DNA of 64,000 nt from an uncultured Gammaproteobacteria bacterium (GTDB taxonomy: Bacteria; Pseudomonadota; Gammaproteobacteria; Steroidobacterales; Steroidobacteraceae): the NCBI GenBank assembly GCA_963786705.1, contig CAWBAG010000027.1, forward strand, positions 1 to 64,000, written 5' to 3'. Of the stretch, positions 28,876 through 57,236 are shown piece by piece. The translations under genes and the position numbers were made by a program. The notes beneath the pieces were generated by a model. The model saw only the letters and a program-made list of their open reading frames with translations, was not told the origin of the DNA and did no database searches. Numbering within the stretch: the stretch's first letter is position 1; every line of letters begins with the position of its first letter.

Positions 28876-28890
28876 GGCTGCTGTCTCCGG

Positions 28891-30504: not shown

Positions 30505-30518
30505 GACGTAGACCTGGG

Positions 30519-31900: not shown

Positions 31901-31936
31901 CTATACTCTGCTTCCAACGCGTCCGGCCTCCCGCAC

Positions 31937-32146: not shown

Positions 32147-32204
32147 CCAGGCGCAACGGCCGCCCGTGGGCGGCCGCCGTGTCCGCCCGTCGCCGGGACT
32201 GCGG

Positions 32205-33086: not shown

Positions 33087-33132
33087 GGGCGTCTGCCTCT
33101 GTCTTCTGTCTGGCGTGTGTGTCGAACCAAGC

Positions 33133-33666: not shown

Positions 33667-33695
33667 CGGGCACGGTCATGTGATGTCGCCCGCGC

Positions 33696-33824
33696 TCACG
33701 GCGACGAGCTCACGACGCTCGACGCGATGAACGCGACGTAGATGCCGAACGCCACCAGCATCAGCAGGATCGTGTTGCGGCGGATGCGCCGGCGCTGCTC
33801 GTCCTGTCGGTCGCCAGTTGTCAT
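33696..33824 (-). CDS. 42-aa cytochrome oxidase small assembly protein-like ORF between coxA and ctaG, absent from the ORF track
   Basis: The product is MTTGDRQDEQRRRIRRNTILLMLVAFGIYVAFIASSVVSSSP. Confidence 0.45.
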   Translation of the reverse strand: MTTGDRQDEQRRRIRRNTILLMLVAFGIYVAFIASSVVSSSP

Positions 33825-33846
33825 CTGCCGATGCCTCGCGCCGTCC

Positions 33847-35475: not shown

Positions 35476-35481
35476 GGTCGG

Positions 35482-36399: not shown

Positions 36400-36473
36400 T
36401 GGCACCACCGAAACTCCCTTGACGTTGACCGGCCGGGTTCCGGGCACCCGGACAGACCCGCGCGACGGCACGA

Positions 36474-37004
36474 TCAATACGATCGATGCTCGAGCGCAGG
36501 GGATTCGCTCGTCCTTCCCACCAATTGCCGGAGCCGCCCCGCAAGACTGCGGCGCTCGTCCTCCATGAGAAACCGGCCCACCTCGCAGGCGATTCCGTGC
36601 GACTCGATCACGAGCCGGCTCGGGTGCAGCACCACTCGCGGATCGCGGAGTTTAACCGTCGCCCAATGGCGTGGAAATACCAACCGACTCGATTCGCCGG
36701 GCCCGCGTCGCTCGACCACGACCGAGGCGTCCGAGACCAGGATGACCTCGCGGCATTCTCCGGAGCGCAGACTGGCCTGCACGGCCCACCAGAGCAACCA
36801 GATCTCGAGCCCGGCGATTGGCAGCACCGGCCACAGGCCCTGGACCGCGAAGAAGACGGCAATGCCGAACGTGAGCACGGCCAATCCACCCACGAACGCC
36901 CGGGCCGACCGCGGGGTCAATGCACAGTTGGGCACCAGTTCGATCCGATGCTCGACGGGCGTGGCGGGCGAACGGTTGTGCGTGGCGATGACCATGGTTC
37001 GCAC
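36474..37004 (-). CDS. DUF2244 integral membrane protein (cox-associated)
   Basis: The 176-aa ORF is intact. Confidence 0.55.
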   Translation of the reverse strand: MRTMVIATHNRSPATPVEHRIELVPNCALTPRSARAFVGGLAVLTFGIAVFFAVQGLWPVLPIAGLEIWLLWWAVQASLRSGECREVILVSDASVVVERRGPGESSRLVFPRHWATVKLRDPRVVLHPSRLVIESHGIACEVGRFLMEDERRSLAGRLRQLVGRTSESPALEHRSY

Positions 37005-37939: not shown

Positions 37940-38806
37940 TTACGGCGTCGAATTGCGTCGCACGAGCCGGGACACCGGCACGCGGACTTCGCCGTGCGCC
38001 TGCGGGACCTTCGTACGGACCGGCCCGGCCGGGCACCAGGCTTGCCCGAACACCACCTCATAGGTCGCCGGCAGCTTCCCATCCTTGCGATGCTGCTCGT
38101 ACGCGCCGAGGACACGCGCAAACGTCGCCTTGCCGGTCAGCCCTGTCGGCCGTCCGGCGTTGGCGTTGTGCGCGCCGATCGTCTTCAGGTCGCGCATCAG
38201 GTCGCGCGCATCGTCATAGGTCAGCGTGTAGCGCTCGACGTCCAGTACCGGTTCGGCAAAGCCCGCCCGCACGAGCGCGTCGCCGAGGTCGTGCATGTCG
38301 ATGAACCGGTTGACGTGCGCGTGACCCGGATCGGCCGCCTGCCATGCGCGTCGCAACTCGTACAGCGTGTCCGGCCCGAGCGTCGCGAACGTCACGACGC
38401 CTCCCGGACGCAGGACCCGGCGTATCTCCCGGAATACCTCGTCCGGATCGTTGCACCACTGCAGCATCAGGCTCGAGAAGACCATGTCCACGACCCCGGT
38501 GACGAGCGGCAGCGCGGCGGCGTCGGCCGCGACTCGATCGAAGCGGCGCAACAGCGTCTGCCGGCGCCCCGCCTCCAGCAACATGCCCATCGCAATATCG
38601 AGCGCGCAGACCCGGGCCCTCGGGTAGCGCCGCTTGAGCGCGATCGTCCCGTGCCCCGTCCCGGCGCCCGCATCCAGGACGACCTTGGGTTCGAGCCGCA
38701 CGACGTCGAGCCGGGCGAGCAGCTCCTCGCGCACCCTGGCCTGGAGCACGGCGGCCGCGTCGTAGTCCCGCGCTGCCTGTGTGAAAGCCGTCGCGACCCG
38801 GCTCAT
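37940..38806 (-). CDS. bioC: malonyl-ACP O-methyltransferase BioC
   Basis: SAM-methyltransferase motif VLDAGAGTGHGT. The BioC region runs from MSRVATAF. Confidence 0.8.
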   Translation of the reverse strand: MSRVATAFTQAARDYDAAAVLQARVREELLARLDVVRLEPKVVLDAGAGTGHGTIALKRRYPRARVCALDIAMGMLLEAGRRQTLLRRFDRVAADAAALPLVTGVVDMVFSSLMLQWCNDPDEVFREIRRVLRPGGVVTFATLGPDTLYELRRAWQAADPGHAHVNRFIDMHDLGDALVRAGFAEPVLDVERYTLTYDDARDLMRDLKTIGAHNANAGRPTGLTGKATFARVLGAYEQHRKDGKLPATYEVVFGQAWCPAGPVRTKVPQAHGEVRVPVSRLVRRNSTP

Positions 38807-39718
38807 GTCGAGCGTGAGCGCCGCTGCCTCGGTCGGTTGTGGACTCGCGGCGCCTGCGCGTGACAGGCCCGGCGCCCTGCGCTCGAACACCGGCACGCCC
38901 ACGACCGCGGCCGGCGGCGGCCTCGGCTCGAGATGGCGCCCGAGAAACGGCACGATCGCGTCCAGCACGTCGTCGGGGTGCGAGAGAAACGGTGCATGCC
39001 CGGCCTTCGCGACCTGGACGAAACGCGCGGCAGGCAATGCCTGTGCGAGAGCCCGGCCAGCCCCGGCCGGCGTGATGCGGTCGTGCTCGCCGGCGATCAC
39101 GAGCGCCGGAACCGCGATCCCGCCGAGGGAGCCGCGCAGGTCCGCGTCGCGCAGGATGCGGATCCCGGCCTGCAGCGCGCGGGGGTCGGGTTCGCCGTGG
39201 CTCGCGAGGTTCGCGCGCAGGGTGCGCAGTGCCTCGCTTGCTCGCTCGTCACCCCAGGTCTGCAGCGCGAGAAAATTGGCGATCGTGCGCCGGAAGTCCC
39301 GGTCGAGGCCGGTCGCGAATCCGTCGAGGACATCCGGCTTCATGCCGTCAGGCCAGTCGTCGCGGGCCAGGAAGCACGGCGTCGTCGCGACCAGCACGAG
39401 CGCGGCGAGCTCGCCCGGGCGCGAGCGTGCGAGTTCGAGCGCCACCATGCCGCCGAGCGACCAGCCGAGCACGCCGGCCCCTCGCGGAACGTGCGCCGAA
39501 ACAGCCCGGGCGAGCGCGGCCAGGTCAGGCGCGCCATCCGTCCAGGGACTGCGGCCGTGGCCGGGAAGGTCGATCACGTGCAGGCGCGCGTGTGCTGCCA
39601 GCCGGTCGAGCCAGGGTCCCCACATGCCGCCGTGCAAGGCCCAGCCGTGCAGCAGCACGAGGTCCGGACCCGCACCCCGCGTCTCGACGTGCAGCGGCGC
39701 TCGACCGGGATCGCTCAC
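38807..39718 (-). CDS. bioH: pimeloyl-ACP methyl ester esterase BioH (alpha/beta hydrolase), read-through in frame into bioC with no intervening stop
   Basis: LVLLHGWA and GWSLGG are present. The GTG start forms a GTGA overlap with the bioF stop. No stop codon separates it from bioC. Confidence 0.7.
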
Positions 39719-42048: not shown

Positions 42049-42783
42049 TGGCCATGTTCGAAGTCGACAGGTGGCTGGAGCGCGGCGCGGACTGGTTGCT
42101 GCCGTCGCGGTGCGCCGTATGCCGGGGCCGCGGCCAGCGGCAGGGCCTCGATCTCTGCGCCGCCTGCGAGGCCGACCTGCCGTACCTCCACTCCCCGTGC
42201 CTGCGCTGCGGCTTGCCGAGCGAGGCGCACGACGCGCCGGACGGGCCGGGCTGCACTCGTTGCCGGGGCATCGACCTTTCTTTCGCGCGCTGCTACGCGC
42301 CGTATCCTGTACGCGGCCCCGCTCGACGGCCTCGTGCAGGACCTCAAGTATGGCGGCGCGCTCGCGAACGCGCGCGTGCTCGGGACGCTGCTCGGCCGCG
42401 CGGTTCGCGCGCTCGGCCTGCACCTCGACGTCGACCTGCTCGTGCCCGTGCCGCTGCACCCGTCCCGCCTGCTCGAGCGCGGCTTCAACCAGTCGCACGA
42501 GATCGCGCGGTTCGCGGCGCGCGAGGTCGGTATACGCTGTGTGCCGCGCGCTTTGCGCCGGCAGCGATCGACCTCGCCGCAGGTCGGGCTCGCGCGCGAG
42601 GCGCGCGCAGCGAACGTGGCCGGGGCCTTCGGTGCCGATCGGGACCAGGTCGCGGGCCGGCGCGTGGCGCTCGTCGACGACGTCGTGACGACGGGCAGCA
42701 CCGCTCGTGCGGCCGCAAGGCAATTGCGAACCGCGGGCGCGTTCACCGTGGACGCGTGGTCGGTCGCGCGGGTGCCGGGCTGA
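42049..42783 (+). CDS. comF: ComF-family phosphoribosyltransferase (ComFC/GntX-like), frameshift near 42295
   Basis: N-terminal Cys clusters (CAVC...CAAC, CLRC...CTRC) are present. The PRT motif [13 protein letters not shown] is in another frame. Confidence 0.7.
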
Positions 42784-42879: not shown

Positions 42880-44090
42880 ATGCGTATCCACCGCTGGATG
42901 CCGCTGCGCGATTTCCTGAAGCTCGAGTCCGCGAGCGGCATCGTGCTCGTGCGTGGCCGGCGCGCTCGCCCTGGTGGCGGCCAATACGCCGTTGGCGGAC
43001 CGGTACGAGTCGCTGCTGCGACGCCCTTCAGCGTGCAGGTCGGCGACGTTCACGCTCGACAAGCCGCTGCTCGATCTGGGTCAACGACCTGCTGATGGCG
43101 ATCTTCTTCCTGCTGGTCGGGCTCGAGATCAAGCGCGAGGTCGTGACCGGCGAGCTGTCGGACGCCTCGAAGGTCGCGCTGCCCGCCGTCGCGGCGCTCG
43201 GCGGCATGGTCGTGCCGGCCGCGATCTACGCGGGGATCAACTGGCACGATCCGGTCGGGCATCGCGCGGCTGGGCGATTCCCTCGGCCACCGACATCGCC
43301 TTCGCGCTCGGCGTGCTGTCGCTGTTCGGCGAGCGCGTGCCGGTCGGCCTGAAGGTGTTCCTGATGACGCTCGCGGTGCTCGACGACCTCGGCGCCATCG
43401 TGATCATCGCGATCTTCTACACGAGCGACCTGTCGGTGCCGGCGCTGGTGCTCGCCGGCCTCGCGGTGGCGGCGCTGCTCGCGTTGAACCGGCTCGGCGT
43501 GCTGCGCATTGCGCCCTACATGCTGGTCGGCACGGTGCTGTGGCTCTGCGTGCTCAAGTCCGGCGTGCACGCCACGCTGGCCGGCGTCGTCACCGCGCTG
43601 TTCGTGCCGGCGCGCGACCCGCGCGATCCCGGCCACCCGCCGCTCACGACGGCTCGAGCACTCGCTGCATCCGTGGGTGGCGTTCGGCATCCTGCCGGTG
43701 TTCGCGTTCTCGAACGCCGGCGTCGACCTCGGCGGGCTGGGCATCGCGCGACCTGCTGCAGCCGATCCCGCTCGGCATCATGCTCGGCCTCTTCGTCGGC
43801 AAGCAGGTGGGCGTGTTCGGCATTCGCCTGGGCTCGCCGTCAGCGCCGGACTCGCGCAGCTGCCCGTCGGGCGTCGACTTCAGGCAGGTCTACGGCGCGG
43901 CCGTGCTCTGCGGCATCGGATTCACGATGAGCCTGTTCATCGGCATGCTCGCGTTCGAGAACGCGGGCGCGGGCGAGGTGGTCGTGACCGACCGGCTCGG
44001 CATCCTGGTCGGCTCGCTGCTGTCCGCGGCGCTCGGCTACGTCGTGCTGAATTTCGTGCTGCCGCGACGCGCAGCAGCAACCCTTGAGCT
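42880..44090 (+). CDS. nhaA: Na+/H+ antiporter NhaA, at least 6 frame changes in about 1.2 kb (possible pseudogene)
   Basis: NhaA segments occur in alternating frames. They include [81 protein letters not shown] and [14 protein letters not shown]. Confidence 0.6.
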
Positions 44091-44131: not shown

Positions 44132-45061
44132 TCAGCGCGCGAACAGGTAGTCGAGCAGGATGCCCGCGAACACCGCGAGCCCGAACAGGTTGTTGTCAGG
44201 AACGCGCGGAAGCAGCGGTCCGGGTCGCGCTCGCGGATCAGCCACTGCTGGTGGACCGCGAGCGCGCCGCGACGCACGAGCCCGCACCAGTACCAGCGGC
44301 CGAGGCCGCACGTCCCGGCGACCAGCGCGAGGCCCGCGAGCGCCGCCAGCCTGCAGCACCGCGACGATGCGCGCGGTCCGCACGCCCGAACAGGATCGCG
44401 GACGACCGGATGCCGATGACGAGGTCGTCCTCGCGGTCGACCATCGCGTAGATCGTGTCGTACGCGGTGGTCCAGAGCACGCACCGCGACGGAACAGCAC
44501 CCAGGCCTGACGGCGGCACGATCGCCGGTCTGCGCCGCGAACGCCATCGGCACGGACCAGCCGAACGCCAGCGCCGAGGTAGGCCTGCGGCAGTGCGAAG
44601 AAGCGCTTCAGGAACGGATAGGTCACGGCCAGCACGCCGCCGATCAGCGCGAGCACCTGCGTCGGCCGGTTGAGCGGGATCAGCAGCGCGAGCGCGATCA
44701 GGCCGAGCACCGCGAACAGCGCGAGCGCCTCGGCGGGCGAGACCGCCTGCCTGGCGAGCGGCCGGTCCGCGGTGCGCCGGACGTGCGGGTCGAACTCGCG
44801 ATCGGCGAAGTCGTTGATCACGCAGCCCGCCGAGCGCATGACGAACGTGCCCATGACGAAGATCACGAAAATGCGCTCGTCCGGCTGCCCGTCCGCCGCG
44901 ATCCACAGCGCCCACAGCGCCGGCCACAGCAGCAGCCAGATGCCGATCGGGCGGTCGAGGCGCATCAGTCGCGCGTACTCGCGCAGCCGCACGCGCACGA
45001 CCGCGAGTCCGCGGGGCTCGGCGCGCTCGGCTTCTTGTCGAGGTCGCGTGACGTTGCTCAT
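44132..45061 (-). CDS. ubiA: 4-hydroxybenzoate polyprenyltransferase UbiA, about 3-4 frame changes
   Basis: [19 protein letters not shown] is present. [20 protein letters not shown] is in another frame. The C-terminus is CFRAF...[18 protein letters not shown]. Confidence 0.65.
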
Positions 45062-47171
45062 CGGTACCACGATGCAGCGCTCAGACCTTGCGGAATCGCT
45101 CGCCGTCGCCGACCCAGCGCCGCGACGAGCGCCGCTATGTTCGCCTGCGGACCGCGCAGCATCAATGCCGCCGCGCGCTGCACGTCCGGCAGGAGGTCCG
45201 CGTCGCGCACCAGGTCGGCGACCCGCAGCTGCATCAGGCCCGGTCTGGCGCGTGCCGAGCAGCTCGCCCGGTCCGCGCAGCTCCAGGTCGCGCCGCGACA
45301 CCTCGAAGCCGTCGTTCGTCTCGCGCAGCACGGCGAGCCGCTCGCGCGCGATCGGCGTGAGCGGCGGCCTGGTAGAGCAGCACGCAGGTGCTCTCGACGG
45401 AGCCGCGCCCGACGCGGCCGCGCAGCTGGTGCAGCTGCGCGAGGCCCATGCGCTCGGCGTTCTCGATGACCATCAGGGTGGCGTTCGGCACGTCGACGCC
45501 GACCTCGATCACCGTCGTCGCGACCAGCAGGTCGAGCTTGCCGTGCTTGAAGGCGGTCATCACCGCGTCCTTCTGCCGGCCCGGCATGCGGCCGTGCACG
45601 AGGCCGACGCGCACGTCCGGCAGCGCCGCCGCGAGCGGCGGCTGCCGTCTCTTCGGCGGCTTCGTAACGCACGAGCGTCGGACTCGTCGATCAGCGGGCA
45701 GACCCAGTACGCCTGTCGTCCCGCCCGGCACGCCGCCGTCGATGCGCTCGACGACCTCGCTGCGGCGCGCGTCCGGCAGCACGACGGTCTTGATCGGCGT
45801 GCGGCCCGGCGGCAGCTCGTCGATCACCGAGACGTCGAGGTCGGCGTAGGCCGTCATCGCGAGCGTGCGCGGAATCGGCGTCGCGGTCATGACCAGCTGG
45901 TGCGGGTAAGCGCCCACCGGCTCGGCCCTTCTCGCGCAGCTGCAGGCGCTGGTGCACGCCGAACCGGTGCTGCTCGTCCACGATCACGAGGGCGAGGCGG
46001 CGGAACTCGACGCCTTCCTGGAACAGCGCGTGCGTGCCGATCGCCACCTGGATGTCGCCCGCCGCAAGCTCGCGCTCGAGCGCGGCGCGCGTCTTGCCCG
46101 TGTGCCGGCCGGTCAGCAGCGCGACGCGCACGCCGAGCGGGTCGAGCCAGCGCCATGAAATTGCGCGCGTGCTGCTCGGCGAGCAGCTCGGTCGGCGCCA
46201 TCACGCGCGGCCTGCGCGCCGTGCTCGACCGCGCGCAGCGCCGCGAGCGCGGCGACCACGGTCTTGCCCGAGCCGACGTCGCCCTGCACGAGCCGCATCA
46301 TCGGGATGCGCGCGTCGAGGTCGGCCGCGATCTCGAGCCAGACGCGGCGCTGCGCGCCGGTGAGCCGGAACGGCAGCGCTGCGAGGCACCGGTCGACGAG
46401 GTCCGAACGTCGCGGCAGCGGCCACGCACGATCGAGGTCCGCCGCCTGCCGCAGCAGGCGCAGGCTGATCTGGTGCGCCAGCAGTTCCTCGAACGCGAGG
46501 CGACGCTGCGCGGGGTGGCGGCCGGCCTCGAGCAGCTTCGAGGTCCGCGTCGGGTGGCGGGCGGTGCACGTAGCGCAACGCTGCGTCGAGCGCCGGCAGG
46601 TCGAAGGCGTCCAGCACGCCCGGCGGGAGCAGGTCCGGCAATGCGCCCTGCGACAGCAGGGCGAGCGCGAGGTCCGTGAGCACGCGCATGCGGCCCTGCT
46701 GCACGCCTTCCGTCGTCGGGTAGACGGGCGTCAGCGACTCGGCCGGCGCGTCGCCGGCATCGGCGGTCACGCGACGGTACTCGGGATGCACGATCTCGAG
46801 GCCCGCCCGGGCCCATGCGCACCTCGCCGAAGCAGCGCAGGCGCTGCCCGCGCACGAGTGCCGCCTGCTGCGCGGCGGAGAAGTGAAAGAACCGCAGGGT
46901 GACGTAACCCGTGCCGTCGGCGAGCCGCACGCAGCAGCGCGCGCCGGCGGCGGAACACGACTTCGGCGAGCTGCACCTCGCCTTCGATGACGGCGCGGTC
47001 GCCGCCGCGCAGGCTGCCGATCGGGACCACGCGGGTGCGGTCCTCGTAGCGCAGCGGCAGGTGGAACAGCAGGTCCTGGACCGTGCGCAGGCCGAGTCGT
47101 GCCAGCGTCTCGGCGAGCGCCGGGCCGACGCCGCGCAGGCCGTGACGGGCGTTCGGCGAGCGTCTCGGCAT
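45058..47171 (-). CDS. recG: ATP-dependent DNA helicase RecG, at least 8 frame changes (possible pseudogene)
   Basis: RecG pieces lie in at least five ORF fragments. They include the N-terminus [93 protein letters not shown] and the C-terminus [13 protein letters not shown]...[17 protein letters not shown]. Confidence 0.65.
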
Positions 47172-47181
47172 TCATGCGGCG

Positions 47182-47589
47182 TCAGGCGACGTCGGGCCGG
47201 GCGCCGCTCAGAGCGACCAGGATGCCGTCCACTTCGACGCTGGCTCCGCGCGGCAGCGCTGCCACGCCGACCGCCGCACGCGCCGGATAGGGCGGCGCGA
47301 AATACTCCGCCATGACGTGTTCACGAGCGGAAGTTGCGCGAGGTCCGTCAGGTACACGTTGAGCTTGACCGCCGCGCGCGAGGTCGCCGCCGGCGGCCTG
47401 CGCGACGGCGCGCAGGTTGTCGAACACGCGGCGCACCTGCGCTTCGACGTCGCCCTGCACGAGCTCGCCCGTCGCCGGGTCGAGCGGAATCTGGCCCGAC
47501 AGGTAGACGGTGGCGCCGGCCTTGATCGCCTGGGAATAGGTGCCGATGGCGTTCGGCGCGTGGCCGGTCGAGACGGGAGTGAAAGGCAC
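47182..47589 (-). CDS. ridA: RidA/YjgF-family reactive intermediate deaminase, two closely spaced frame changes
   Basis: The GTG start has an AGGAG Shine-Dalgarno. APNAIGTYSQAIKAG and the C-terminus VMAEYFAPPYPARAAVGVAALPRGASVEVD are present. The central block is out of frame for about 60 nt. Confidence 0.65.
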   Translation of the reverse strand: MPFTPVSTGHAPNAIGTYSQAIKAGATVYLSGQIPLDPATGELVQGDVEAQVRRVFDNLRAVAQAAGGDLARGGQAQRVPDGPRATSAREHVMAEYFAPPYPARAAVGVAALPRGASVEVDGILVALSGARPDVA

Positions 47590-47752
47590 GGTGCGGCTCC
47601 TGCAGCGGGATCGATGGCGGCAGCGTAGTGGAGACGCGGAGACGTGGATAGTGCCTGCCGGTCGACCGTCCGTGACGTGAATCACCGGCGGGGCGCGGTC
47701 CGCCGCAATCGTTCGCGCCCGCTTGCGCGCCGCGGCGGGTCGTCTCGTGGCG

Positions 47753-47983
47753 TCAGGGCGTGAACGAAATCGTGCGCGTGAGGAACGTGTAGTCGCCTTC
47801 GATCGCCATCAGGCCGATCAGGACCAGCAGCACAAGCGGCGGCACCAGGATCGCGAGCTTCAGCGCGAGCCGCTCCCACTTCATGTGCATGAAGATCGCG
47901 ACGATGAAGCCGGCCTTCAGGAACATGAACAGGAGGATCAGCGTCCAGCGCAGCATGCCGTGCACGTGGAAGTAATCGACCAT
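47753..47983 (-). CDS. coxQ: cytochrome c oxidase subunit IV (bacterial CoxQ-type)
   Basis: A 76-aa 2-TM product carrying the HMKWE motif. Confidence 0.6.
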   Translation of the reverse strand: MVDYFHVHGMLRWTLILLFMFLKAGFIVAIFMHMKWERLALKLAILVPPLVLLVLIGLMAIEGDYTFLTRTISFTP

Positions 47984-48077
47984 GTAGGAAAACGTGCTGA
48001 GTACGAACAGCAGCAGCCAGATCCAGAGGTAGACGCTGATCGGATGCTGGGTGCCTTCTGGCTGACATGGCCGCTCC

Positions 48078-48771
48078 CTACCAGAGATAGAAGAACGCGA
48101 AGATGAAGACCCAGACCAGGTCGACGAAGTGCCAGTACAGGCCGGCGATCTCGACGATCTCGTAGCCGCTGCGCTCGTAGTCGCCGCGCCAGACCTTCAT
48201 CGCGACGATCGTGAGATAGACGACGCCGGCCGACACGTGCAGGCCGTGGAAACCGGTGATCATGAAGAACGTCGCGCCGAACTGCGCCGCGCCCATCGGA
48301 TTGCCCCAGGGCCGGATGCCTTCCTCGAGTGATCAGCTTGGTCCACTCGAACGCCTGCATGCCGACGAAGGTCGCGCCGAAGGCCGCCGTGATCAGCATC
48401 AGCGCCGCGGTGCGGCCGCGGTTGCGGCGATAGCCGTAGTTCACCGCCATCGCCATCGTGCCGCTGCTGGTGATCAGGATGAACGTCATGATCGCGATCA
48501 GGATCAGCGGCACGGTGCGCCGCCGAGGCTCGAGCGCGAAGACCTCGCTCGGGTTCGGCCACGGCACCGTCGTCGACATGCGCACGTTCATGTAGGACAC
48601 CAGGAAGCACGAGAAGATGAACGTGTCGCTGAGCAGGAAGATCCACATCATCGCCTTGCCCCAGGGCACGGGGAACGTCTGCTTGTCGGACGCGAAATCG
48701 GTGACGACGCCGGGCAATCCCGCGGCTGCGCCGGCCGGTTCGATGGATCCAGTCATGGTTTCGACTGCCAT
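48078..48771 (-). CDS. coxP: cytochrome c oxidase subunit III family protein (CoxP-like), frameshift near 48300
   Basis: ORF 47938..48771 holds the N-terminus. ORF 48078..48296 holds the C-terminus, which contains FGATFFMITGFHGLHV and YWHFVDLVW. Confidence 0.65.
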
Positions 48772-48791
48772 AGGCGTCCGTGATCCTCGGT

Positions 48792-49487
48792 TCAGGTGAT
48801 CAGCAGCAGGCCGAACAGGACCAGCCAGACGACCAGCAGGTAGTGCCAGTACACGGTGCAGAGCTCGACGCTCAGGCGCGTTGCCGCGAGCGTTGCGCGG
48901 CCCCGCGACATCCCGGCGACCGCGCGGGCCCAGACGACGAGGCCGCCGAGCAGGTGCAACCCGTGCAGGCCCGTCAACGCATAGAAGAATGCGTTCGCCG
49001 GATTACCGGCCGCGTAGACGCCCGCCGCCTGCAGCTGGCGCCACGCCAGCCACTGGCCCGCGAGAAATGCGATCGCGAATATCCCGCCCGCGAGCATGGC
49101 GGCGCTCGCGCGCTCGAACCTGCCGCGACGCAGCGCCGCGCTAGCGAGCTGCATGCCGACGCTGCCCGCTACCAGCAGGCCCGAATTCACCCACAGGATC
49201 CCCGGCTCGTCGACGGGCCGCCAGTCCCTCAGGTCGACGGCGGCCTGCACGAGGTGGGGGTTCATGCGCATGAAGTAGGCCGTGATGAACAGCGTGAAGA
49301 ACGACGTCGCCACGCCCAGGAACACCCAGAGACCAGTCCGTGCCGGCGCGGCGCTCGCAATGGCGGCGCCGTCCCGGCCGTCGTAGGTGCCCTGCGCCTC
49401 CCACGACCTGGTGGTCAGCTGTCGCACGGCGAGCCACCAGACGACGAGGCCTGCGACGATTCCTGCCGATGCGACGATCAGGTTCAA
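48792..49487 (-). CDS. coxO: cytochrome c oxidase subunit III family protein (CoxO-like)
   Basis: The 231-aa ORF is intact and multi-TM. Confidence 0.6.
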   Translation of the reverse strand: MNLIVASAGIVAGLVVWWLAVRQLTTRSWEAQGTYDGRDGAAIASAAPARTGLWVFLGVATSFFTLFITAYFMRMNPHLVQAAVDLRDWRPVDEPGILWVNSGLLVAGSVGMQLASAALRRGRFERASAAMLAGGIFAIAFLAGQWLAWRQLQAAGVYAAGNPANAFFYALTGLHGLHLLGGLVVWARAVAGMSRGRATLAATRLSVELCTVYWHYLLVVWLVLFGLLLIT

Positions 49488-51245
49488 GCGTGCCGTCCGT
49501 GGACCGCCGCGGCGACCTCACGCGCATCCGGTGGCTGGTTCTGCGGCACGAAGTCTTCCTTGTGGCCCGGCGCGCCGTACTCGTAGGCCCAGCGGTAGAC
49601 GACCGGCAGTTCCGGCCCCCAGTTGCCGTGCCTGGGCGGCGTGTCGGGGGTCTGCCACTCGAGCGTGGTCGCACGCCAGGGATTGCCGCCGGCGGGCTTG
49701 CCGTGCTTCAGGCTCCAGAACAGGTTGAACAGGAAGATCAGCTGCGCGGCCGCCACGACCAGCGCGGCGATCGTGATGGCGGCGTTCATCGTATGCACGG
49801 AGTCCGGGATGAAATACGTGTCGCCCATCGAGAAGTAACGGCGCGGCAGGCCGAGGATGCCGAGGTAGTGCATGGGCAGGAAGATCGCGTACGTGCCGAA
49901 GAGCGTCACCCAGAAGTGCAGCCGCCCCAGCGTCTCGTTGGTCATGCGCCCCGTCATCTTCGGGTACCAGTGGTAGATCGCGCCGCAGACGACCAGCACC
50001 GGCGACACGCCCATGACCATGTGGAAGTGCGCGACGACGAAATAGGTGTCCGAGAGCGGCACGTCCACCGTGACGTTGCCGAGGAACAGCCCCGTCAGGC
50101 CGCCGTTGATGAACGTGAACACGAAGCCGATCGCGAACAGCATCGGGACCGTGAGGTGCACGTCGCCGCGCCAGAGCGTGAGCACCCAGTTGTAGACCTT
50201 GAGCGCGGTCGGGATCGCGATGATCAACGTCGTCGTGGCGAAGAAGAACCCGAAATACGGGTTCATGCCGCTCACGTACATGTGGTGGGCCCAGACGACG
50301 AAGCTCAGCACGCCGATCGCGAGGATCGCCCAGACCATCATCCGGTAGCCGAAGATGTGCCGTCGCGCGTGCGTGCTGATCAGGTCGGAGACGATGCCGA
50401 ACGCCGGCAGCGCGACGATGTAGACCTCGGGGTGGCCGAAGAACCAGAACAGGTGCTGGAACAGCAGCGGGCTGCCGCCCTTGTGCACGGTCTGGTCGCC
50501 GAGCGACATGACCGCCGGCATGAAGAAGCTCGTGCCGAGCAGGTTGTCGAGCCCCATCATGATCGCGCTCACGAGCAGCGCCGGGAAGGCGAGCAGCGCC
50601 AGGATCGTGGCCATGAAGATGCCCCAGACGGACAACGGCATGCGCATGAGCGTCATGCCGCGGCACCGCGCCTGCAGCACCGTCACGACGTAGTTCAGGC
50701 CGCCCATCGTGAACCCGACGATGAAGATGGCGAGCGACACCAGCATCAGCGTGATGCCCCAGTCCGAGCCCGGCGTGCCGCTCGAGGATCGCCTGCGGCG
50801 GATAGAGGGTCCAACCGGCCCCGGTCGGCCCGCCCGGCACGAAGAAGCTCGCGACGAGCACGAGCACCGCGAGCAGGTAGACCCAGTAGCTGATCATGTT
50901 CAGGTACGGGAAGACCATGTCGCGCGCGCCGCACATCAGCGGGATCAGGTAGTTGCCGAATCCGCCCAGGAACAGCGCGGTGAGCAGGTAGATCACCATG
51001 ATCATCCCGTGCATGGTGACGAACTGGTAGTAGTTGCTCGGGTTGATGAAGTGGAACGTGCCGGGGAACCCGAGCTGCAGGCGCATCATCATCGACAGCG
51101 CGATCGCCACGAGCCCGATGGCCATCGCCGTCACCATGTACTGGATGGCGATGACCTTGTGGTCCTGGCTCCAGACGTACTTGGTGATGAACGTCTGCGG
51201 GTCGTGCAGGTGCGCGTGCTGGTCCGCGATCGCGACGTATGACAT
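49484..51245 (-). CDS. coxN: cytochrome c oxidase subunit I, A-family (CoxN-like, third oxidase), one frameshift near 50750
   Basis: The N-terminal 165 aa are in ORF 49518..51245. The remainder is in ORF 49484..50746 (GHPEVYIVALPAFG, VVWAHHMYVSGM). Confidence 0.75.
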
Positions 51246-51282
51246 CAGAACCTCTCCATGCTCGGCATTGCGTCGCCTGCTT

Positions 51283-52641
51283 TCAACGCAGGGTGTTGAT
51301 GTAGGCGAGCAAGTCTGCGGTCGGCTCGCCTTCGGCCACGGTCCCGCTCATCCGCGCCATCTGCGCGCCATTGAAATCCTGCGGATGGCGGCCCCGATGG
51401 CCCTGCCGGAACTGCTGCAGCTGCCGCGCGAGGTACCAGTCGCTCATGCCGGCGAGCGGCGGCGCGTTCGTCGACCACGAGCCCTGGCCCGTGGCCCCGT
51501 GGCAGTACGCGCAGGTCGTATAGCGGCTCGCGCCGGCGGCCGCGTCGCCCTGGATGGTCGAGCGCGGCGGCGTGCCAGGCAGCGTCGCGATGTACGCGAC
51601 GACATTGTCGATCGTCGTCGCATCGAGCGGCCCGGCAATCGCGGCCATCTGGCTCGCGATCGCGTCACCTGGGGCCCCGCCGCGCAGTCCCTGCTTGAAG
51701 TTGTGCACCTGCCGGGCGAGGTACCAGGCCGGCTGGCCCGCGAGCTTCGGCGCGTTCAGGGCCTGGTTGCCTTCGGCGTTGACGCCGTGGCAGGCCGCGC
51801 AGACCGCAAAGGCTGCCTGGCCGGCAGTCACGTCGGCGGCGGCTCGTGCCGCCATGCGGCCATGCGTCTGCTGGCCGGCCAGCCACGCCTGGTAGTCGTC
51901 TGCCTCGTCGACGACCACCCGCCCGCGCATCGCGAAGTGCCCCATGCCGCACAGTTCCTCGCAGAGGATCTCGTACTCGCCCGCCTTGGTCGGCGTGAGC
52001 CACAGGTACGTGATCATGCCCGGCACCAGGTCCATCTTGACGCGGAACTGCGGCACGGTGAAGTCGTGCAGGACGTCCTTCGATCGCAGCAGCACCTTGA
52101 CGGGCTTGTCGAGCGGCAGGTGCAGCTCGGGTCCCGGAACCAGCACGTCGTCCTGGCCGCGCGGATCGTTGGCGTCCATGCCGAACGGATTGTCGACGTT
52201 GACGAGCGCGGCATCGATGGCGCCGAGCACGCCGTCCTCGCCCGGCAGGCGGTAGCTCCACGACCATTGCTGGCCGACGGCCTCGACCACCGTCGCGTCG
52301 TCCGGCACCGTCACGAACTTCGCCCAGACCACGAGCCCGGGCGCCAGCATCGCGATGACGCCGAGCGACGTCAGCCCCATCAGCCACCACTCCAGTTTCT
52401 TGTACTCGGGCTCGTACTCCGCCCGGCGCTGCTCGCCCTTGCGATGCCGGTAGCGGACGATCGCGTAGGCCATGAACAGGTTCACCGCCACGAACACGGC
52501 TCCGGTGACCCAGAACGTGAGGTTGACGGTGTCGTCCATGGTCCCCCAGTTCGACGCGATCGGCGTGAACCACCAGGGATTGAGGAAGTGGAATGCAACC
52601 GTGCCGATCACGAGCAGCACGAGCGCGATCGCGATCGCCAT
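51283..52641 (-). CDS. coxM: cytochrome c oxidase subunit II with two C-terminal cytochrome c domains (CoxM-like)
   Basis: The CuA motif CEELCGMGHFAM is followed by two CxxCH motifs, CAACH and CAYCH. Confidence 0.8.
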   Translation of the reverse strand: MAIAIALVLLVIGTVAFHFLNPWWFTPIASNWGTMDDTVNLTFWVTGAVFVAVNLFMAYAIVRYRHRKGEQRRAEYEPEYKKLEWWLMGLTSLGVIAMLAPGLVVWAKFVTVPDDATVVEAVGQQWSWSYRLPGEDGVLGAIDAALVNVDNPFGMDANDPRGQDDVLVPGPELHLPLDKPVKVLLRSKDVLHDFTVPQFRVKMDLVPGMITYLWLTPTKAGEYEILCEELCGMGHFAMRGRVVVDEADDYQAWLAGQQTHGRMAARAAADVTAGQAAFAVCAACHGVNAEGNQALNAPKLAGQPAWYLARQVHNFKQGLRGGAPGDAIASQMAAIAGPLDATTIDNVVAYIATLPGTPPRSTIQGDAAAGASRYTTCAYCHGATGQGSWSTNAPPLAGMSDWYLARQLQQFRQGHRGRHPQDFNGAQMARMSGTVAEGEPTADLLAYINTLR

Positions 52642-52644
52642 GCG

Positions 52645-53220
52645 TCACTCCTTCTGCAGGAGTCGGTCGTCCGGGGAACCGGGCACCTGTTCGCGCTTCG
52701 GCGAGCTGAACGGGTTGATGAAGTGGCGGTCGACCCCGGCGAGTTCCGCCTCCGGGTGCCGCTCGCGCATCATGCTGCTGACCGCCTCCTCCTGCTCCTT
52801 GAGCGCGTAGATCAGGATCAGGAACTTGCCGGCCTCGATGGCGTCGTGGAACTTCGCGAGCTTGCGGTTCTCGCTGCCGATGCCGATCAGGCCGCCTTCC
52901 CAGGTGCCGAACAGCGTCGCGACCCCGACCAGGGCGAAGTAGACGAAGTTCGGGACCTCGATGCCGAACGGATCGTAGCGATCGATCAGCCAGACGCCGA
53001 GCAGCCCGACGAGCAGACCCGCCGCGCCGCCGAGGACGCCGTCGCGGACGACGTCGAGCGTCTCGAGGTAGTTGCTCGAATGGATGTGCTGTTTCTTCAG
53101 CCCCGCCTCGTCACGCGAGATCACGTGCACGAAGTAGTCCTTGATCCCGACCTCGTGCAGGTCGTCGGAGATCCCGTGGGTGCTCTCGAGCGTCGGCGCC
53201 AGGTAGTAAAGGCACTTCAT
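52645..53220 (-). CDS. hypothetical membrane protein at the head of the coxMNOPQ-like operon
   Basis: A soluble N-terminal domain is followed by two TM helices. The stop abuts the coxM start. Confidence 0.45.
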   Translation of the reverse strand: MKCLYYLAPTLESTHGISDDLHEVGIKDYFVHVISRDEAGLKKQHIHSSNYLETLDVVRDGVLGGAAGLLVGLLGVWLIDRYDPFGIEVPNFVYFALVGVATLFGTWEGGLIGIGSENRKLAKFHDAIEAGKFLILIYALKEQEEAVSSMMRERHPEAELAGVDRHFINPFSSPKREQVPGSPDDRLLQKE

Positions 53221-53301
53221 CTGCTCCCCCCGTTGCAAGTATTTACGCGGCCGTGGGCTGTGGGTGCGTGCGAATCGTTCCTCGACGAGGATGCGGCGCG
53301 G

Positions 53302-53553
53302 CTATTCCTCGCCCCAGAACCAGGCGAGCAGGCCGAATCCGAACAATGAGAGCGCGATCAAGGCAAACGGCAGTGCCGGCGCCCAGACCGGCAGGTGATC
53401 GAAGGCGTACGCGGACCGGATGACCGGCCCGCCGATCAGCACGGCGACGACACCGATGGCAATGCCTACGGCCAGCTGCGATCCGCGCTGCCACGCGAAG
53501 AACCACAGCAACAAGCAACCCAGCAACACGAACGTGATAAGGGATGCCCACAT
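53302..53553 (-). CDS. small 3-TM membrane protein
   Basis: The real coding part of ORF 53302..54000 begins MWASLITFVLLGCLLLWFFAW. A lower-GC promoter-like stretch lies upstream. Confidence 0.4.
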   Translation of the reverse strand: MWASLITFVLLGCLLLWFFAWQRGSQLAVGIAIGVVAVLIGGPVIRSAYAFDHLPVWAPALPFALIALSLFGFGLLAWFWGEE

Positions 53554-53672
53554 AGTGCAGAAACTGTAGCAGATATTTTCCGGATGGAAGCGCTCGATAC
53601 GAATGCGAAGCGTTTTGCAGCGCAGCGAAATTCCGCCTGCGCACGCGGGCTCGCCGCGCCTCGCCAGCGACG

Positions 53673-54503
53673 TCAGCGATTGCGGCGACCGGCGATGACG
53701 ATGGCTGCGGCCAGCATGCCGAGCACCATCAGGGCGGGAACTGCAGCCGCGAACACGGAATAGTCGAAACGATAGCGTCCCGATGCGGGGTCGTAGACCG
53801 AGCAGTACAACCTCACCCGCTCGATGAGGCCTCGCACGGAGGGGCGTTCGAGGCTGCGACCGAGCAGCAGCCTCCTGAGCGGTTCGACCAGTTCCGGCGG
53901 CGCGAATTCCGGCCCGTAGACCTGCTGCGCCACCTTGCCGTCGGCGTCGAGCACCGTCACCTGCGCGACGTGATCGAAGCCGCCGGGCGTCGCGACCCAC
54001 GTGAACCCGACGTCGTCTGCGAGGCCGCGCACCGTGGCCGCATCCGCGCTCGCGAAGTACCAGTCCGGGTCGTCGATGCCGCGGTCGCGCCCGTACGACC
54101 GCATGCGCTCGGGCGTGTCGTGCTCCGTGTCGAAGCCGACCGTGAGCACGGCGAAGCTGCGTGCACCGAGCGCCTCACGCGCCGTCCGCACGACCTCGCG
54201 CAGGTGCAGCGTCGAGCCCGAGCAGATGCTGTAGCAGTTGGTATAGACGAGGCTCAGCACCACCGGACGTCCCCGCAGCTCCGCGAGGCTGAGTGGCCGC
54301 CCGTCCTGGCCGGTGAATGCGTGGTCGCGCGCGACCCGTCCGATCGCCGCCTGGCTCGTGCGCAGCGCCGCGGCATCGGCGTCGTTGGTTCCGGCCAGCG
54401 CCGCGCCGCCGTGCGCGGCGAGCAGCGCCGCGAGGCCCGCGCCGCAGACGATGCGGGCCCGCCGCGTCGCAGGTGCCGGCACCGCTTGCGGCGCCCCCGT
54501 CAC
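53673..54503 (-). CDS. sco: SCO1/SenC copper chaperone (copy 2)
   Basis: A signal peptide, the CxxxC region VVLSLVYTNCYSICS and a C-terminal TM are present. The GTG start forms a GTGA overlap with the spoT stop. Confidence 0.75.
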   Translation of the reverse strand: MTGAPQAVPAPATRRARIVCGAGLAALLAAHGGAALAGTNDADAAALRTSQAAIGRVARDHAFTGQDGRPLSLAELRGRPVVLSLVYTNCYSICSGSTLHLREVVRTAREALGARSFAVLTVGFDTEHDTPERMRSYGRDRGIDDPDWYFASADAATVRGLADDVGFTWVATPGGFDHVAQVTVLDADGKVAQQVYGPEFAPPELVEPLRRLLLGRSLERPSVRGLIERVRLYCSVYDPASGRYRFDYSVFAAAVPALMVLGMLAAAIVIAGRRNR

Positions 54504-56656
54504 GCGAGTGTCCGCGACACCTTGAGTACTTCGGGCATCGCGCGCACGGCCCGGATCACGCTTGCGAGCTGCTTGCGGTCGTGCACGTGCAACTCGAAGA
54601 TCAGTGTCGACGTGTCGAGGTCGCGTTCGACGACGGACACCCGGTCGATGTTGGTCTGCGTGCCGGCGATGGCGGAGGCGACCGAGGCCAGCACCCCCAT
54701 GCGGTTGGTCACGTCCACGCGGATCTCGACGTGGAACAGCCGGTCGGTCGCGGGTTGCCAGGTGACCGGGATCCACTTCTCGGGTTGCTTGCGGAAGGAC
54801 GAGAGGTTGCCGCAGGCCTCGCGGTGGATCACGACGCCGCGCCCGCTCGAGAGGCTCGCGAGGATCGGGTCGTTCGGAATCGGGAAGCAGCAGCGCGCAT
54901 AGGTGACGACGAGCCCTTCGGTGCCGGCGATCGCGAGCGGGCCGGCGGTGCCTTCGGCGACCGCCTCGGCGTCCGCGGGCAGCAGGCGTCGCGCGATGAA
55001 CGGCGCAACGCGCTCGCCGAGGCCGATCTTCTCGTAGAGCTCGTCGGGTGTGCGCAGGCCGAGCTCCGCCACGACGCCGGCGATCGATTCGGCGGGAATC
55101 TTGCGCAGCGTCAGTGCGAATTCCTCGAGCGCCTGGTTCAGCAGCCGCTTGCCGAGCTCCACCGCCTCGCCGCGCTTCAGGTTCTTCAGGTACTGGCGGA
55201 TCGAGGCCCGCGCCTTCGCGGTGACGACGAAATTGACCCACGCGGGATTCGGCGTGGCGCCCTTCGCCGTGATGATCTCGACGGTCTGGCCGTTGCGCAG
55301 CGGGGTGCGCAGCGGCACCAGGCGCCTGTCGACCTTGGCGGCCACGCACCGGTTGCCCACGTCCGTGTGCACGGCATATGCGAAGTCGACGCACGTCGAC
55401 CCGCGCGGCAGGCGCCGGATCTCGCCCTTGGGCGTGAACACGTACACCTTGTCCGGGAACAGGTCGACCTTGACGCTCTCGAGGAATTCCTCGGGGTTGC
55501 CGCCCTGCTGGATGTCCACCAGCTGCTGCAGCCACTCGCGCGCGCGATCGCTCTGCGCGCCCGCGTCGGTACGGCCGCCTTCCTTGTACTGCCAGTGGGC
55601 GGCGATGCCGGACTCCGCGACCCGGTGCATGTCCTCGGTCCGGATCTGCACCTCGATCGGCGTGCCGTTCGGCCCGAACAGCGTCGTGTGCAGCGACTGG
55701 TAGCCGTTCACGCGCGGGATCGCGATGTAGTCCTTGAAGCGGCCGGGCATCGGCTTGAAGACCGAGTGCACGACGCCGATCGCGCGGTAGCAGGTGTCGG
55801 CCTTGTCCACGACGATGCGGAAGCCGTAGACGTCCACGATCTCGTTCAGCGAGACCTTCTTGCGGCGCATCTTCTGGTAGATGCTGTACGCGTCCTTTTC
55901 ACGGCCCTCGATGCGGGCGGCGATCCCGGCGCGCTCGAGCGCCTCGAGCAGCGAGGCCGCGATCCGCCCGACGAACTGCTTCTGGTTGCCCTTCGCGGTC
56001 TTGACCGCCGTCTCGATCACCTTGTAGCGCCGCGGATAGAGCGCGCGGAAGCCCAGGTCCTCGAGCTCGCGCTTGATCGAGTGCATGCCGAGCCGGTTCG
56101 CGATCGGCGCGTAGATGTCGAGCGTCTCGCGCGCGATCGTGCGCCGCTTGGCCGGCGGCATCGCGCCGAGCGTGCGCATGTTGTGCGTGCGGTCGGCCAG
56201 CTTGACCATGATCACGCGGATGTCGCGGACCATGGCCAGCAGCATCTTGCGGAAGCTCTCCGCCTGCGCCTCGGCGCGGCTGCGGAACTGGATCTGGTCG
56301 AGCTTGCTGACGCCGTCCACGAGCTCGGCGACCTCGTGGCCGAACCGTCCTGTGATCTCGTCCTTGGTGTTCGGCGTGTCCTCCATGACGTCGTGGAGGA
56401 TCGCGGCGATCAGCGTCTGGGAATCGAGCTTGAGGTCCGCAAGCAGGTCGGCGACCGCGACCGGATGCGTGATGTACGGCTCGCCGGACCGGCGCCGCTG
56501 GCCGTCATGGGCCTGGAACGCGAAATCGTAGGCTTCCTGGACCAGCTCGACCTGTTCGGGCGGCAGGTAGGTCTCCAGCTTCGCGACGAGCTGGTTGATC
56601 CCTATGGAGCGTCTTCCGTAGGGCAGCAGGCTGCGCAGGGAAGACGTGACGTCCAC
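54500..56656 (-). CDS. spoT: bifunctional (p)ppGpp synthetase/hydrolase SpoT/RelA
   Basis: An intact 718-aa product with HD, synthetase, TGS and ACT regions. Confidence 0.9.
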   Translation of the reverse strand: MDVTSSLRSLLPYGRRSIGINQLVAKLETYLPPEQVELVQEAYDFAFQAHDGQRRRSGEPYITHPVAVADLLADLKLDSQTLIAAILHDVMEDTPNTKDEITGRFGHEVAELVDGVSKLDQIQFRSRAEAQAESFRKMLLAMVRDIRVIMVKLADRTHNMRTLGAMPPAKRRTIARETLDIYAPIANRLGMHSIKRELEDLGFRALYPRRYKVIETAVKTAKGNQKQFVGRIAASLLEALERAGIAARIEGREKDAYSIYQKMRRKKVSLNEIVDVYGFRIVVDKADTCYRAIGVVHSVFKPMPGRFKDYIAIPRVNGYQSLHTTLFGPNGTPIEVQIRTEDMHRVAESGIAAHWQYKEGGRTDAGAQSDRAREWLQQLVDIQQGGNPEEFLESVKVDLFPDKVYVFTPKGEIRRLPRGSTCVDFAYAVHTDVGNRCVAAKVDRRLVPLRTPLRNGQTVEIITAKGATPNPAWVNFVVTAKARASIRQYLKNLKRGEAVELGKRLLNQALEEFALTLRKIPAESIAGVVAELGLRTPDELYEKIGLGERVAPFIARRLLPADAEAVAEGTAGPLAIAGTEGLVVTYARCCFPIPNDPILASLSSGRGVVIHREACGNLSSFRKQPEKWIPVTWQPATDRLFHVEIRVDVTNRMGVLASVASAIAGTQTNIDRVSVVERDLDTSTLIFELHVHDRKQLASVIRAVRAMPEVLKVSRTLA

Positions 56657-56676
56657 GGGTCAGGCCGGTCGGTCGG

Positions 56677-56961
56677 TCAGTCCCCCAACCCGATCTGCGG
56701 CGCGCGGAACTCGCCCATGAACTCGGGCTCGGGGAGGATTTCAGGCGGCGGTGGCGGCAGGTCCGGCTCGTCGAGGATCTCGACGCCGACGTGGCCGGCC
56801 GCGATCTCGCGCAACGACAGCACGGTGACCTTGTCGTTTTCCCAGTCGAGGGTGGCCTCGGCGCCGTTCGCGAGCTTGCGCGCACGACGGGACGCGACCA
56901 GCACGAGCTGGAACAGGTTCGGGACGTTCTGCAGGCAATCTTCGACGGTGATGCGGGCCAT
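56677..56961 (-). CDS. rpoZ: RNA polymerase omega subunit
   Basis: The product begins [30 protein letters not shown]. Confidence 0.9.
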
Positions 56962-57236
56962 GTGCGGTCAATCTTGCGGGGACGAGGGGGCGAGGATAGC
57001 ACGCGAGCTCGAGAATGCGACGTAACCGCCAGACGCGTCCCGGGAAGTCGCGTCCAATCCGGTCATGCTCTGGACTCAGCGATCGGACCATCCGTTGCCA
57101 CTGGAATTTAACAGAATTCCGAGTGCGACGCTTGTCACAGAAACAATCTGGTGGCCCGCTTCGCCGCGCCGCCGATGCTAACGTCCAACGAAAATAAGCA
57201 CCGGCACTCGCTCACCAACCACTTGGAACAGCATCA

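Follow-up and report, generated by a model that had tools for sequence, protein, structure and literature searches.

The stretch of DNA analyzed here (the window) comprises 64,000 nucleotides of an uncultured gammaproteobacterium of the family Steroidobacteraceae (assembly GCA_963786705.1, contig CAWBAG010000027.1, positions 1–64,000 of the forward strand) and carries, by Pfam, three gene sets of the heme-copper oxidase superfamily, all on the minus strand: a coxMNOPQ-like A-family set (set 1; 47753–52641), an aa3-type cluster (set 2; 29512–37004), and a B-family-related set (set 3; 26625–29061), which is embedded in a larger conserved module (22338–29454). An earlier note on this DNA had described three distinct heme-copper oxidases; three superfamily sets do lie where it had placed them, but the third lacks the tyrosine of the O2 reductases. 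The locus probably encodes two CuA-containing oxidases of the A1 type and one eNOR-type nitric oxide (NO) reductase that share cofactor genes, and the frame breaks that interrupt many of its genes, which had gone unnoticed, are probably consensus artefacts. The flanks of the window hold housekeeping genes (spoT, rpoZ, panB, panC, bio genes, and pilus genes).

G+C content is ~69% across the window, and spurious frames dominate raw lists of open reading frames (ORFs). Genes were selected by third-position GC (GC3) first and the chosen ORFs were then scanned with Pfam; NCBIfam cut-offs were used for family calls. Eighty related loci were collected from species-representative genomes by querying with the large central fragment of set 3 subunit I; their only sources are uncultured Gamma- or Alphaproteobacteria (80–97% identity). 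Related loci and contigs are labeled L001, L002, L005, L010, L013, L021, L038, L050, L070, L081, and L082; L081, an intact contig with a short-read-style name that is fully syntenic with window positions 37–57 kb, served as the reference for mapping set 1. Gene content, motifs, family placement, and synteny are read directly from these data, and catalytic activities are deduced.

The related loci share with the window a module of ~7.1 kb (22338–29454; ~76–87% DNA identity), which in its intact form in relatives encodes a 61-amino-acid (aa) ORF, a 56-aa ORF, subunit II (178 aa), subunit I (566 aa), CtaB (306 aa), an SCO protein (268 aa), a cytochrome b/Fe-S fusion (~727 aa), and a hemerythrin (131 aa). 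The counterparts in the window are as follows.

29240–29425, minus strand: s61, small membrane ORF at the head of the module (83% identity to the 61-aa ORF of L002)
28891–29061, minus strand: s56, ORF of 56 aa with a single hydrophobic segment, immediately preceding subunit II (89% identity to the L002 ORF)
28339–28875, minus strand: set 3 subunit II, small intact cupredoxin with CuA ligands (CuA motif His...CNEYCGFGHHTM)
26625–28328, minus strand: set 3 subunit I, probably eNOR-type (Tyr replaced by Gln), 566 aa after removal of extra bases at 28249, 28136, and 26947
25692–26616, minus strand: ctaB, heme O synthase inside the module, with four extra bases (26462, 26317, 25968, 25893); 306 aa when corrected
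24879–25688, minus strand: sco1, SCO1/SenC copper chaperone (Pfam SCO1-SenC), with extra bases at 25635, 25580, and 25277
22722–24838, minus strand: fusion of cytochrome b (b6/ExtP-like), two [4Fe-4S] ferredoxin motifs, an MvhD/FlpD-like domain, and a C-terminal extension (Pfam Cytochrome_B, Fer4, FlpD)
22338–22725, minus strand: bacteriohemerythrin at the 3′ end of the module (79% identity, one frame)

These genes travel together: among the 80 loci, subunit II was found in 79, s56 in 78, sco in 76, s61 and the fusion in 66 each, hemerythrin in 64, and ctaB in 58, some of the absences being contig ends. Subunit II lies in one frame (90% identity to L002) and gives NCBIfam CoxB/NosZ-type cupredoxin matches below cut-off. 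The ctaB orthologue of L002 passes NCBIfam cyoE_ctaB (265 bits against a cut-off of 210), and ctaB is the sole heme O synthase among the ORFs scanned in the window. Corrected sco1 encodes 268 aa with the motif CYQVC. NCBIfam ExtP and HdrA2-like matches of the fusion fall below cut-off; the region of L005 that holds fusion and hemerythrin (7867–10442) is the counterpart of window 22338–24838, and its hemerythrin passes NCBIfam bact_hemeryth (91.6 bits against a cut-off of 84). No family match was obtained for s56, which is possibly the counterpart of the ba3 subunit IIa; in Thermus, the gene for that subunit presumably also lies upstream of subunit II. Where the aa3 cluster meets the module, a scan for promoters and terminators returned just two weak matches, both inside the s61 ORF.

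Subunit I of set 3 carries the main finding. An intact orthologue scores only 67.6 bits against CtaD_CoxA, and the best solved homologue is the Thermus thermophilus ba3 oxidase (160 bits, vs. ~35 bits for A-family structures; PDB 1EHK/1XME). In alignment to 1EHK, all six metal-ligand histidines (H72, H233, H282, H283, H384, and H386) are kept, and set 3 shares with the Thermus enzyme a small CuA subunit II. Unlike in the Thermus enzyme, the position of Y237 is occupied by Gln: H231-S-S-Q-Q235 aligns with H233-P-I-V-Y237, so that GHPIVY becomes GHSSQQ, and the GHPxVY motif of B-family O2 reductases, with its His-Tyr cofactor, is absent. The cofactor needed for O2 reduction therefore cannot form in set 3. 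The same pairwise alignment places Ser at S309, Tyr at Y248, Thr at T315, His at T312, and Val at Y244. The motif GHSSQQINV is invariant in 76 orthologues, as are tyrosines at positions 63, 87, 134, 246, 270, and 299, among others. A search of 1.84 billion cluster representatives, with the motif read in the best 150, returned nearest representatives carrying GHxxQQ(I/V)N; relatives that bear Tyr do not exceed 46% identity, canonical B-family GHPxVYFWLL proteins are 26–37% identical, and no Asn-type protein is present among the matches of the best 150 that cover the diagnostic site. A sister group (cluster representatives P0129, P0133, P0136, and P0154; 38–46% identity) keeps the Tyr in GHxxQYVNV and could be an O2-reducing relative near the transition from oxidase to NO reductase.

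In a published key adapted from Hemp and Gennis, the residue at this position is Y in O2 reductases, N in sNOR/CuANOR, Q in eNOR, and D in gNOR (Table A4, PMC8756737). Because Gln at the cross-linked Tyr position matches this key, set 3 probably encodes an NO reductase of the eNOR type rather than a ba3 oxidase. According to the sections of Murali et al. (2024; PMC11214002) consulted here, Tyr-less families derived from the B family, including eNOR, have CuA subunits; the Rhodothermus marinus eNOR reduces NO and not O2 and holds a modified heme a (heme As) in both heme sites; ctaA is found in many eNOR operons; sNOR lacks an equivalent of S309; and no migrated active-site Tyr is reported for these families. 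Set 3 resembles the enzymes treated in those sections (R. marinus DSM 4252 and the "cytochrome a1-like" hemoprotein of Magnetospirillum magnetotacticum) in its B-family relationship, its Gln for Tyr, its CuA subunit II, its apparently retained K-channel-like Ser and Tyr, and its adjoining heme A synthesis genes, with ctaB inside the module and ctaA beside it (PMC11214002). It differs in that its clade has the conserved cytochrome b/Fe-S/MvhD-like fusion and the hemerythrin, which the same sections do not mention. The earlier designation of set 3 as a B-family ba3-type set is thus borne out in that Thermus ba3 is its closest solved relative, but the Gln argues against a ba3 oxidase. A search of the literature yielded no relevant report of eNOR from Woeseiaceae or Steroidobacteraceae.

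The remaining two sets belong to the A family. Set 1 had been described as a coxMNOPQ-like A-type oxidase with a di-heme subunit II, and Pfam order, the CuA site, and two CxxCH motifs all agree with that description. Its genes and those directly upstream are listed below.

53302–53553, minus strand: conserved 83-aa membrane ORF upstream of set 1 (69% identity to an 83-aa ORF in the same position of L081)
52645–53238, minus strand: conserved ORF of ~190 aa directly upstream of set 1 subunit II (79% identity to a 188-aa ORF in the same position of L081)
51283–52641, minus strand: set 1 subunit II (CoxM-like), intact, with a CuA cupredoxin and two c-type cytochrome domains (Pfam COX2, two Cytochrom_C stretches)
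49484–51245, minus strand: set 1 subunit I (CoxN-like), classed as A1-type, in two frames through one extra base at 50782
48792–49487, minus strand: first subunit III-like gene (CoxO-like), intact (Pfam COX3; one frame against the first COX3 of L081)
48078–48771, minus strand: second subunit III-like gene (CoxP-like), with one extra base at 48330
47753–48068, minus strand: subunit IV-like gene (CoxQ-like, COX4_pro), with a frame break 2–3 codons past the ATG

The order COX2, COX1, COX3, COX3, COX4_pro is seen by Pfam in intact L081, and all five genes map onto the window, which corresponds to a CoxMNOPQ-like order. Subunit II is a single frame (82% identity to its L081 orthologue), with the CuA motif CEELCGMGHFAM and CxxCH at residues 281 and 377. 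Subunit I matches COX1 profile positions 2–116 and 122–436 in different frames; the GC3 frame plot switches at ~50,780, and the two translations meet within the conserved segment GWTLYPPQAIL|GGTPGSDWG. Without the A at 50782, it encodes 586 aa with FWFFGHPEVY and scores 400–420 bits against solved A-family aa3 oxidases; the D-channel Asp (ARDMVFP) and K-channel Thr/Lys (AIPTALKVYNW) are retained, as judged by eye against canonical motifs. The second COX3 of L081 maps onto the window in frames −2 and then −3; the corrected window gene encodes 230 aa and gives a CyoC/QoxC-type subunit III match below cut-off. COX4_pro was detected on the L081 orthologue, which maps to window 48058–47759; 7 nt follow the ATG in the window vs. 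9 nt in relatives, placing the break at ~48064, and a weak caa3_sub_IV match was obtained. The ~190-aa ORF has no Pfam or NCBIfam match and the 83-aa ORF no family match; both sit between the second sco gene (sco2) and subunit II in the window and in L081. At the equivalent position L082 carries two ORFs of comparable length (103 and 191 aa), the likeness being one of size and position.

For set 2, the earlier list of coxB, coxA, ctaG, coxC, surf1, and ctaA is confirmed by full-length Pfam matches, and the full order is DUF2244-coxB-coxA-ctaG-coxC-surf1-(PA0111-like)-ctaA, with only the PA0111-like gene weakly matched. No frame breaks affect this set.

36474–37004, minus strand: membrane protein of the DUF2244 family, first gene of the aa3 cluster (Pfam DUF2244, 128.8 bits)
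35482–36399, minus strand: coxB, aa3 subunit II with CuA and no heme c (Pfam COX2 and COX2_TM)
33847–35475, minus strand: coxA, aa3 subunit I, classed as A1-type, intact (Pfam COX1, 1–435 of 436, 527 bits)
33133–33666, minus strand: ctaG/Cox11 assembly factor (Pfam CtaG_Cox11, 1–147 of 148)
32205–33170, minus strand: coxC, subunit III (Pfam COX3, 3–255 of 258, 196 bits)
31946–32146, plus strand: small DUF2909 protein between coxC and surf1 (Pfam DUF2909, E = 1.1e-20)
31130–31900, minus strand: surf1 assembly factor (Pfam SURF1, 3–195 of 205)
30519–31133, minus strand: PA0111-family-like redox-active disulfide protein (NCBIfam PA0111_fam, 80 bits, below the cut-off of 230)
29512–30759, minus strand: ctaA/Cox15 heme A synthase (Pfam COX15-CtaA, 2–322 of 322, 270 bits); the true start is probably near 30520

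CoxB passes NCBIfam CoxB (196 bits, above the cut-off of 147.7) and carries the CuA motif CAELCGRDHGFM without CxxCH, and CoxA passes CtaD_CoxA (682.9 bits, above 670.75) with FWFFGHPEVY. By sequence, both A-family subunit I proteins are of the A1 type, because GHPEVY occurs in both and set 1 has the D- and K-channel residues; for set 2 the assignment was checked through GHPEVY, its channel motifs being visible in the pairwise alignment with set 1. The helix VI Glu, which A2-type enzymes lack and replace functionally by a Tyr-Ser motif, is present in both. Since the two subunit I proteins share only 36% identity, and operon layouts differ, sets 1 and 2 are old paralogues, neither a recent duplicate nor fragments of one operon, outcomes that the earlier note had named as fatal to its view. 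A1 enzymes form the low-affinity class. The proposed layering of O2 affinities is not supported, because both oxidases are A1-type and the third set has the eNOR Gln; no cbb3 or bd oxidase was found among the ORFs scanned in the window. In place of a dense aerobic-respiration island, the locus is better read as two aerobic oxidases and a probable NO reductase.

In the sequence as written, frame breaks affect set 1 subunit I, its second COX3, and its COX4, as well as set 3 subunit I, ctaB, sco1, and the fusion. Frame changes recur throughout 24.8–28.3 kb: set 3 subunit I is recovered by tblastn in frames −3, −1, −2, and −3, ctaB is in five frame segments, sco1 is in three, and the fusion, with two extra bases (23320 and 23282), occupies at least two frames. 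GC3 segmentation of the whole window is too noisy to count frameshifts alone, and homologue mapping was used in its place. When L081 proteins were mapped, COX1, the second COX3, ComF (42075–42780, plus strand), and RecG were broken, and the dihaem COX2, first COX3, RidA, UbiA, BioB, BioF, BioH/C, SpoT, RpoZ, SCO2, and both ORFs preceding set 1 each lay in a single frame. The RecG helicase gene (45121–47175) is in at least eight frame pieces, with roughly 9–12 breaks in 2 kb; a plus-strand gene at 42983–44082 occupies three frames, all shifted in the same direction; and the N-terminus of a MoxR ATPase at ~6.1 kb (about 6100–6170) is not in frame, a probable further break. A +1 frame break is also seen in an M20 peptidase gene at about 17679. 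Every resolved break is a +1 shift, and the ~26 or more events all have the same direction. A multiple DNA alignment of the module shows 12 single-base insertions in coding sequence and no coding deletions. None of the insertions lies in a homopolymer run; many fall at sites that vary among relatives and resemble two alleles written in tandem (CTC/CTT to CTGC, GGC/GGG to GGGC, CGC/CGT to CGCT, TTC/TAC to TATC). In a three-way alignment, unique 1-nt insertions number 14 in the window, 20 at other sites in L082, and four in L081, all of the last intergenic. Once corrected, the module genes are colinear with those of relatives, gap-free, stop-free, and full-length, and their ratios of nonsynonymous to synonymous substitution (dN/dS; 0.07–0.20) are no higher than those of the unbroken subunit II and s56 genes. 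L082 (contig_10453), a related public assembly, is itself fragmented by frame shifts, and the public cluster representatives P0123, P0131, P0135, P0141, P0148, and P0151 are frame-shifted fragments (e.g., "GHSSQQDQRRR"); this kind of assembly error seems to be common in such high-GC organisms.

That set 3 is a genuine ba3-type high-affinity O2 reductase, which would leave three oxidases for different O2 levels, is quite unlikely: although the solved structures nearest to it are ba3 oxidases of Thermus and Aquifex, its subunit II holds CuA, and some authors have proposed a high-affinity oxidase role for the related sNOR from its induction under O2 limitation, the Tyr required for O2 reduction is Gln in all 76 orthologues and canonical GHPxVY proteins are only distantly related. 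Moreover, in the consulted sections of PMC11214002 these families have no migrated Tyr and the characterized eNOR does not reduce O2. With the other two sets both A1-type, affinity layering would be weak even then. Membership of set 3 in the sNOR family (norSY-senC-orf1 of ammonia-oxidizing bacteria) is suggested by the gene order subunit II, subunit I, SenC, and was rejected on the Gln and Ser residues. Like sNOR, set 3 is B-family-derived, has CuA, lacks the Tyr, and lies beside a SenC/SCO gene; unlike sNOR, which has Asn and no S309 equivalent, it has Gln and, in the pairwise alignment, Ser, and the absence of Asn-type proteins among the site-covering matches of the best 150 representatives further makes this assignment very unlikely.

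The frame breaks admit a biological explanation as well. If they were real, the eNOR module, ctaB, one sco gene, and parts of set 1 would be pseudogenes and only the aa3 oxidase would work; the breaks do stand in the given sequence, and they are patchy, leaving the aa3 set untouched. Yet pseudogene decay in bacteria is biased to deletions, and the module has only insertions in its coding sequence and no internal stops, the resolved shifts across the window run in one direction, and dN/dS equals that of unbroken neighbors rather than approaching 1, so that neither mixed indels, nor stops, nor relaxed selection is seen. Essential housekeeping genes such as recG are broken even more heavily; the intact aa3 set would need ctaB, which has no second copy among the scanned ORFs; and L082, assembled independently from a relative, has errors of this kind at other sites. 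Decay is accordingly judged unlikely. Decoding of the shifts in the cell, by programmed ribosomal frameshifting or transcriptional slippage, would agree with all resolved breaks being +1, but no motif, slippery sequence, or rare codon is common to the sites, the shifts are absent from orthologues at 80–97% identity, and up to a dozen frameshift sites in one 2-kb gene have no known precedent; the idea is extremely improbable. The breaks are most likely consensus or assembly artefacts, and the genes are most likely intact in the organism.

Several points weigh against the combination of two A1 oxidases, an eNOR, and artefactual breaks. The eNOR call stands on one diagnostic residue and family placement; for the sNOR family, some authors argue an oxygen reductase role. 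Neither the scanned ORFs of the window nor those of its closest sampled relatives (L001, L010, and L013) include nir or nos genes. Corrected set 1 subunit I scores 667.8 bits against CtaD_CoxA, just below the cut-off of 670.75. The artefact explanation is an inference, the sequencing technologies of the window, L081, and L082 being guessed from contig names, and the breaks are patchy (none in 28.3–42 kb or 51.3–57 kb).

Under this combination, all three enzymes would draw on common cofactor genes: ctaA and ctaB for heme A, two SCO proteins, CtaG, and Surf1. Cox11 inserts CuB and Surf1 helps heme a insertion. Set 2 would be a canonical aa3 oxidase and set 1 a second proton-pumping oxidase with a split subunit III and a small subunit IV, in which the two c-type hemes of subunit II may allow electron entry without a separate soluble cytochrome c. 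Set 3, with its six His, CuA subunit II, and apparent K-channel-like residues, would catalyze the two-electron reaction 2NO to N2O rather than the four-electron reduction of O2, because Gln replaces the cross-linked Tyr, and probably holds a modified heme a in both heme sites by analogy with the Rhodothermus enzyme. The extra single bases would have arisen at consensus building, probably in a long-read or mixed-strain assembly. As a tentative and rather unlikely extension, the eNOR clade may travel as a conserved eight-gene module in which the fusion and hemerythrin form an undescribed branch for electron input or O2/NO sensing in microoxic NO reduction, with the GHxxQYVNV sister group as a step in the transition.

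The A-family sets also have counterparts in known systems. Bradyrhizobium CoxMNOP(Q) shares with set 1 the order II-I-III-III-IV, a split subunit III, and the A-family GHPEVY, and the "ccaa3" oxidases (e.g., of Shewanella) share its dihaem subunit II; unlike these systems, set 1 has two conserved ORFs and a dedicated SCO gene upstream. The Pseudomonas aa3 cluster PA0105–PA0114 presumably runs coxB-coxA-ctaG-coIII-...-surf1-PA0111-cox15-cyoE-senC, and set 2 has the same order from coxB to ctaA, including the weakly matched PA0111-family protein and the DUF2909 gene. Unlike in Pseudomonas, the eNOR subunit genes stand in the window between ctaA and ctaB-sco, and in relatives ctaB-sco travel with the eNOR module rather than with the aa3 cluster.

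The label "ba3-type oxidase" or "cytochrome c oxidase subunit I", whether given by eye or by an automated pipeline, would hide a probable NO reductase here, and the predicted physiology shifts from layering of O2 affinity to aerobic or microaerobic NO handling with N2O as product, in lineages (Steroidobacteraceae-, Nevskiaceae-, and Woeseiaceae-like metagenome-assembled genomes) that come, judging by record titles, from soils, sediments, and wastewater. The single-base insertions would likewise cause key respiratory genes to be mis-scored as pseudogenes or truncated proteins. Neither lesson is new, as eNORs are a documented family and metagenome assemblies are already known to contain frameshift errors.

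The presence of two sco copies, ctaA, and ctaB had been noted correctly. The second sco gene lies upstream of set 1.

53673–54503, minus strand: sco2, SCO1/SenC copper chaperone in a single frame, start approximate (Pfam SCO1-SenC)

The L081 SCO protein maps to 54461–53682 in one frame (64% identity), and SCO2 has a CYSIC motif. The two window copies are not close, the L002 orthologue of sco1 being 56% identical to sco2. By eye, both proteins show an apparent N-terminal signal-like segment and a C-terminal hydrophobic helix in place of the usual N-terminal anchor.

In the wider set of relatives, the cytochrome cd1 domain is the commonest Pfam family among 118 ORFs flanking the module in 12 diverse relatives. 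NirJ and NosR were confirmed beside the module in L038 (2372–7288), the same layout occurs in L050 (2395–7295), and NosR occurs in L021 (16130–17743). In some relatives, alphaproteobacterial ones among them, nirJ, a cd1-type beta-propeller gene, and nosR are thus found no more than 10 kb from the eNOR module, which links it to denitrification in those lineages. A backbone of rpoZ-spoT-RidA-recG-ubiA is conserved in the window (44141–57000), L070 (2070–9239), and L081 (4280–17014). In both the window and L081, set 1 and its SCO gene occupy the interval from spoT to RidA; this slot is empty in L070, where the eNOR module directly follows the UbiA-like gene. Respiratory modules seem to recur in this neighborhood. 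Apart from respiration, BioH-like hydrolase and BioC-like methyltransferase domains occur in one ORF at window 37988–39718, and likewise in L081, which suggests a fused BioH/BioC protein.

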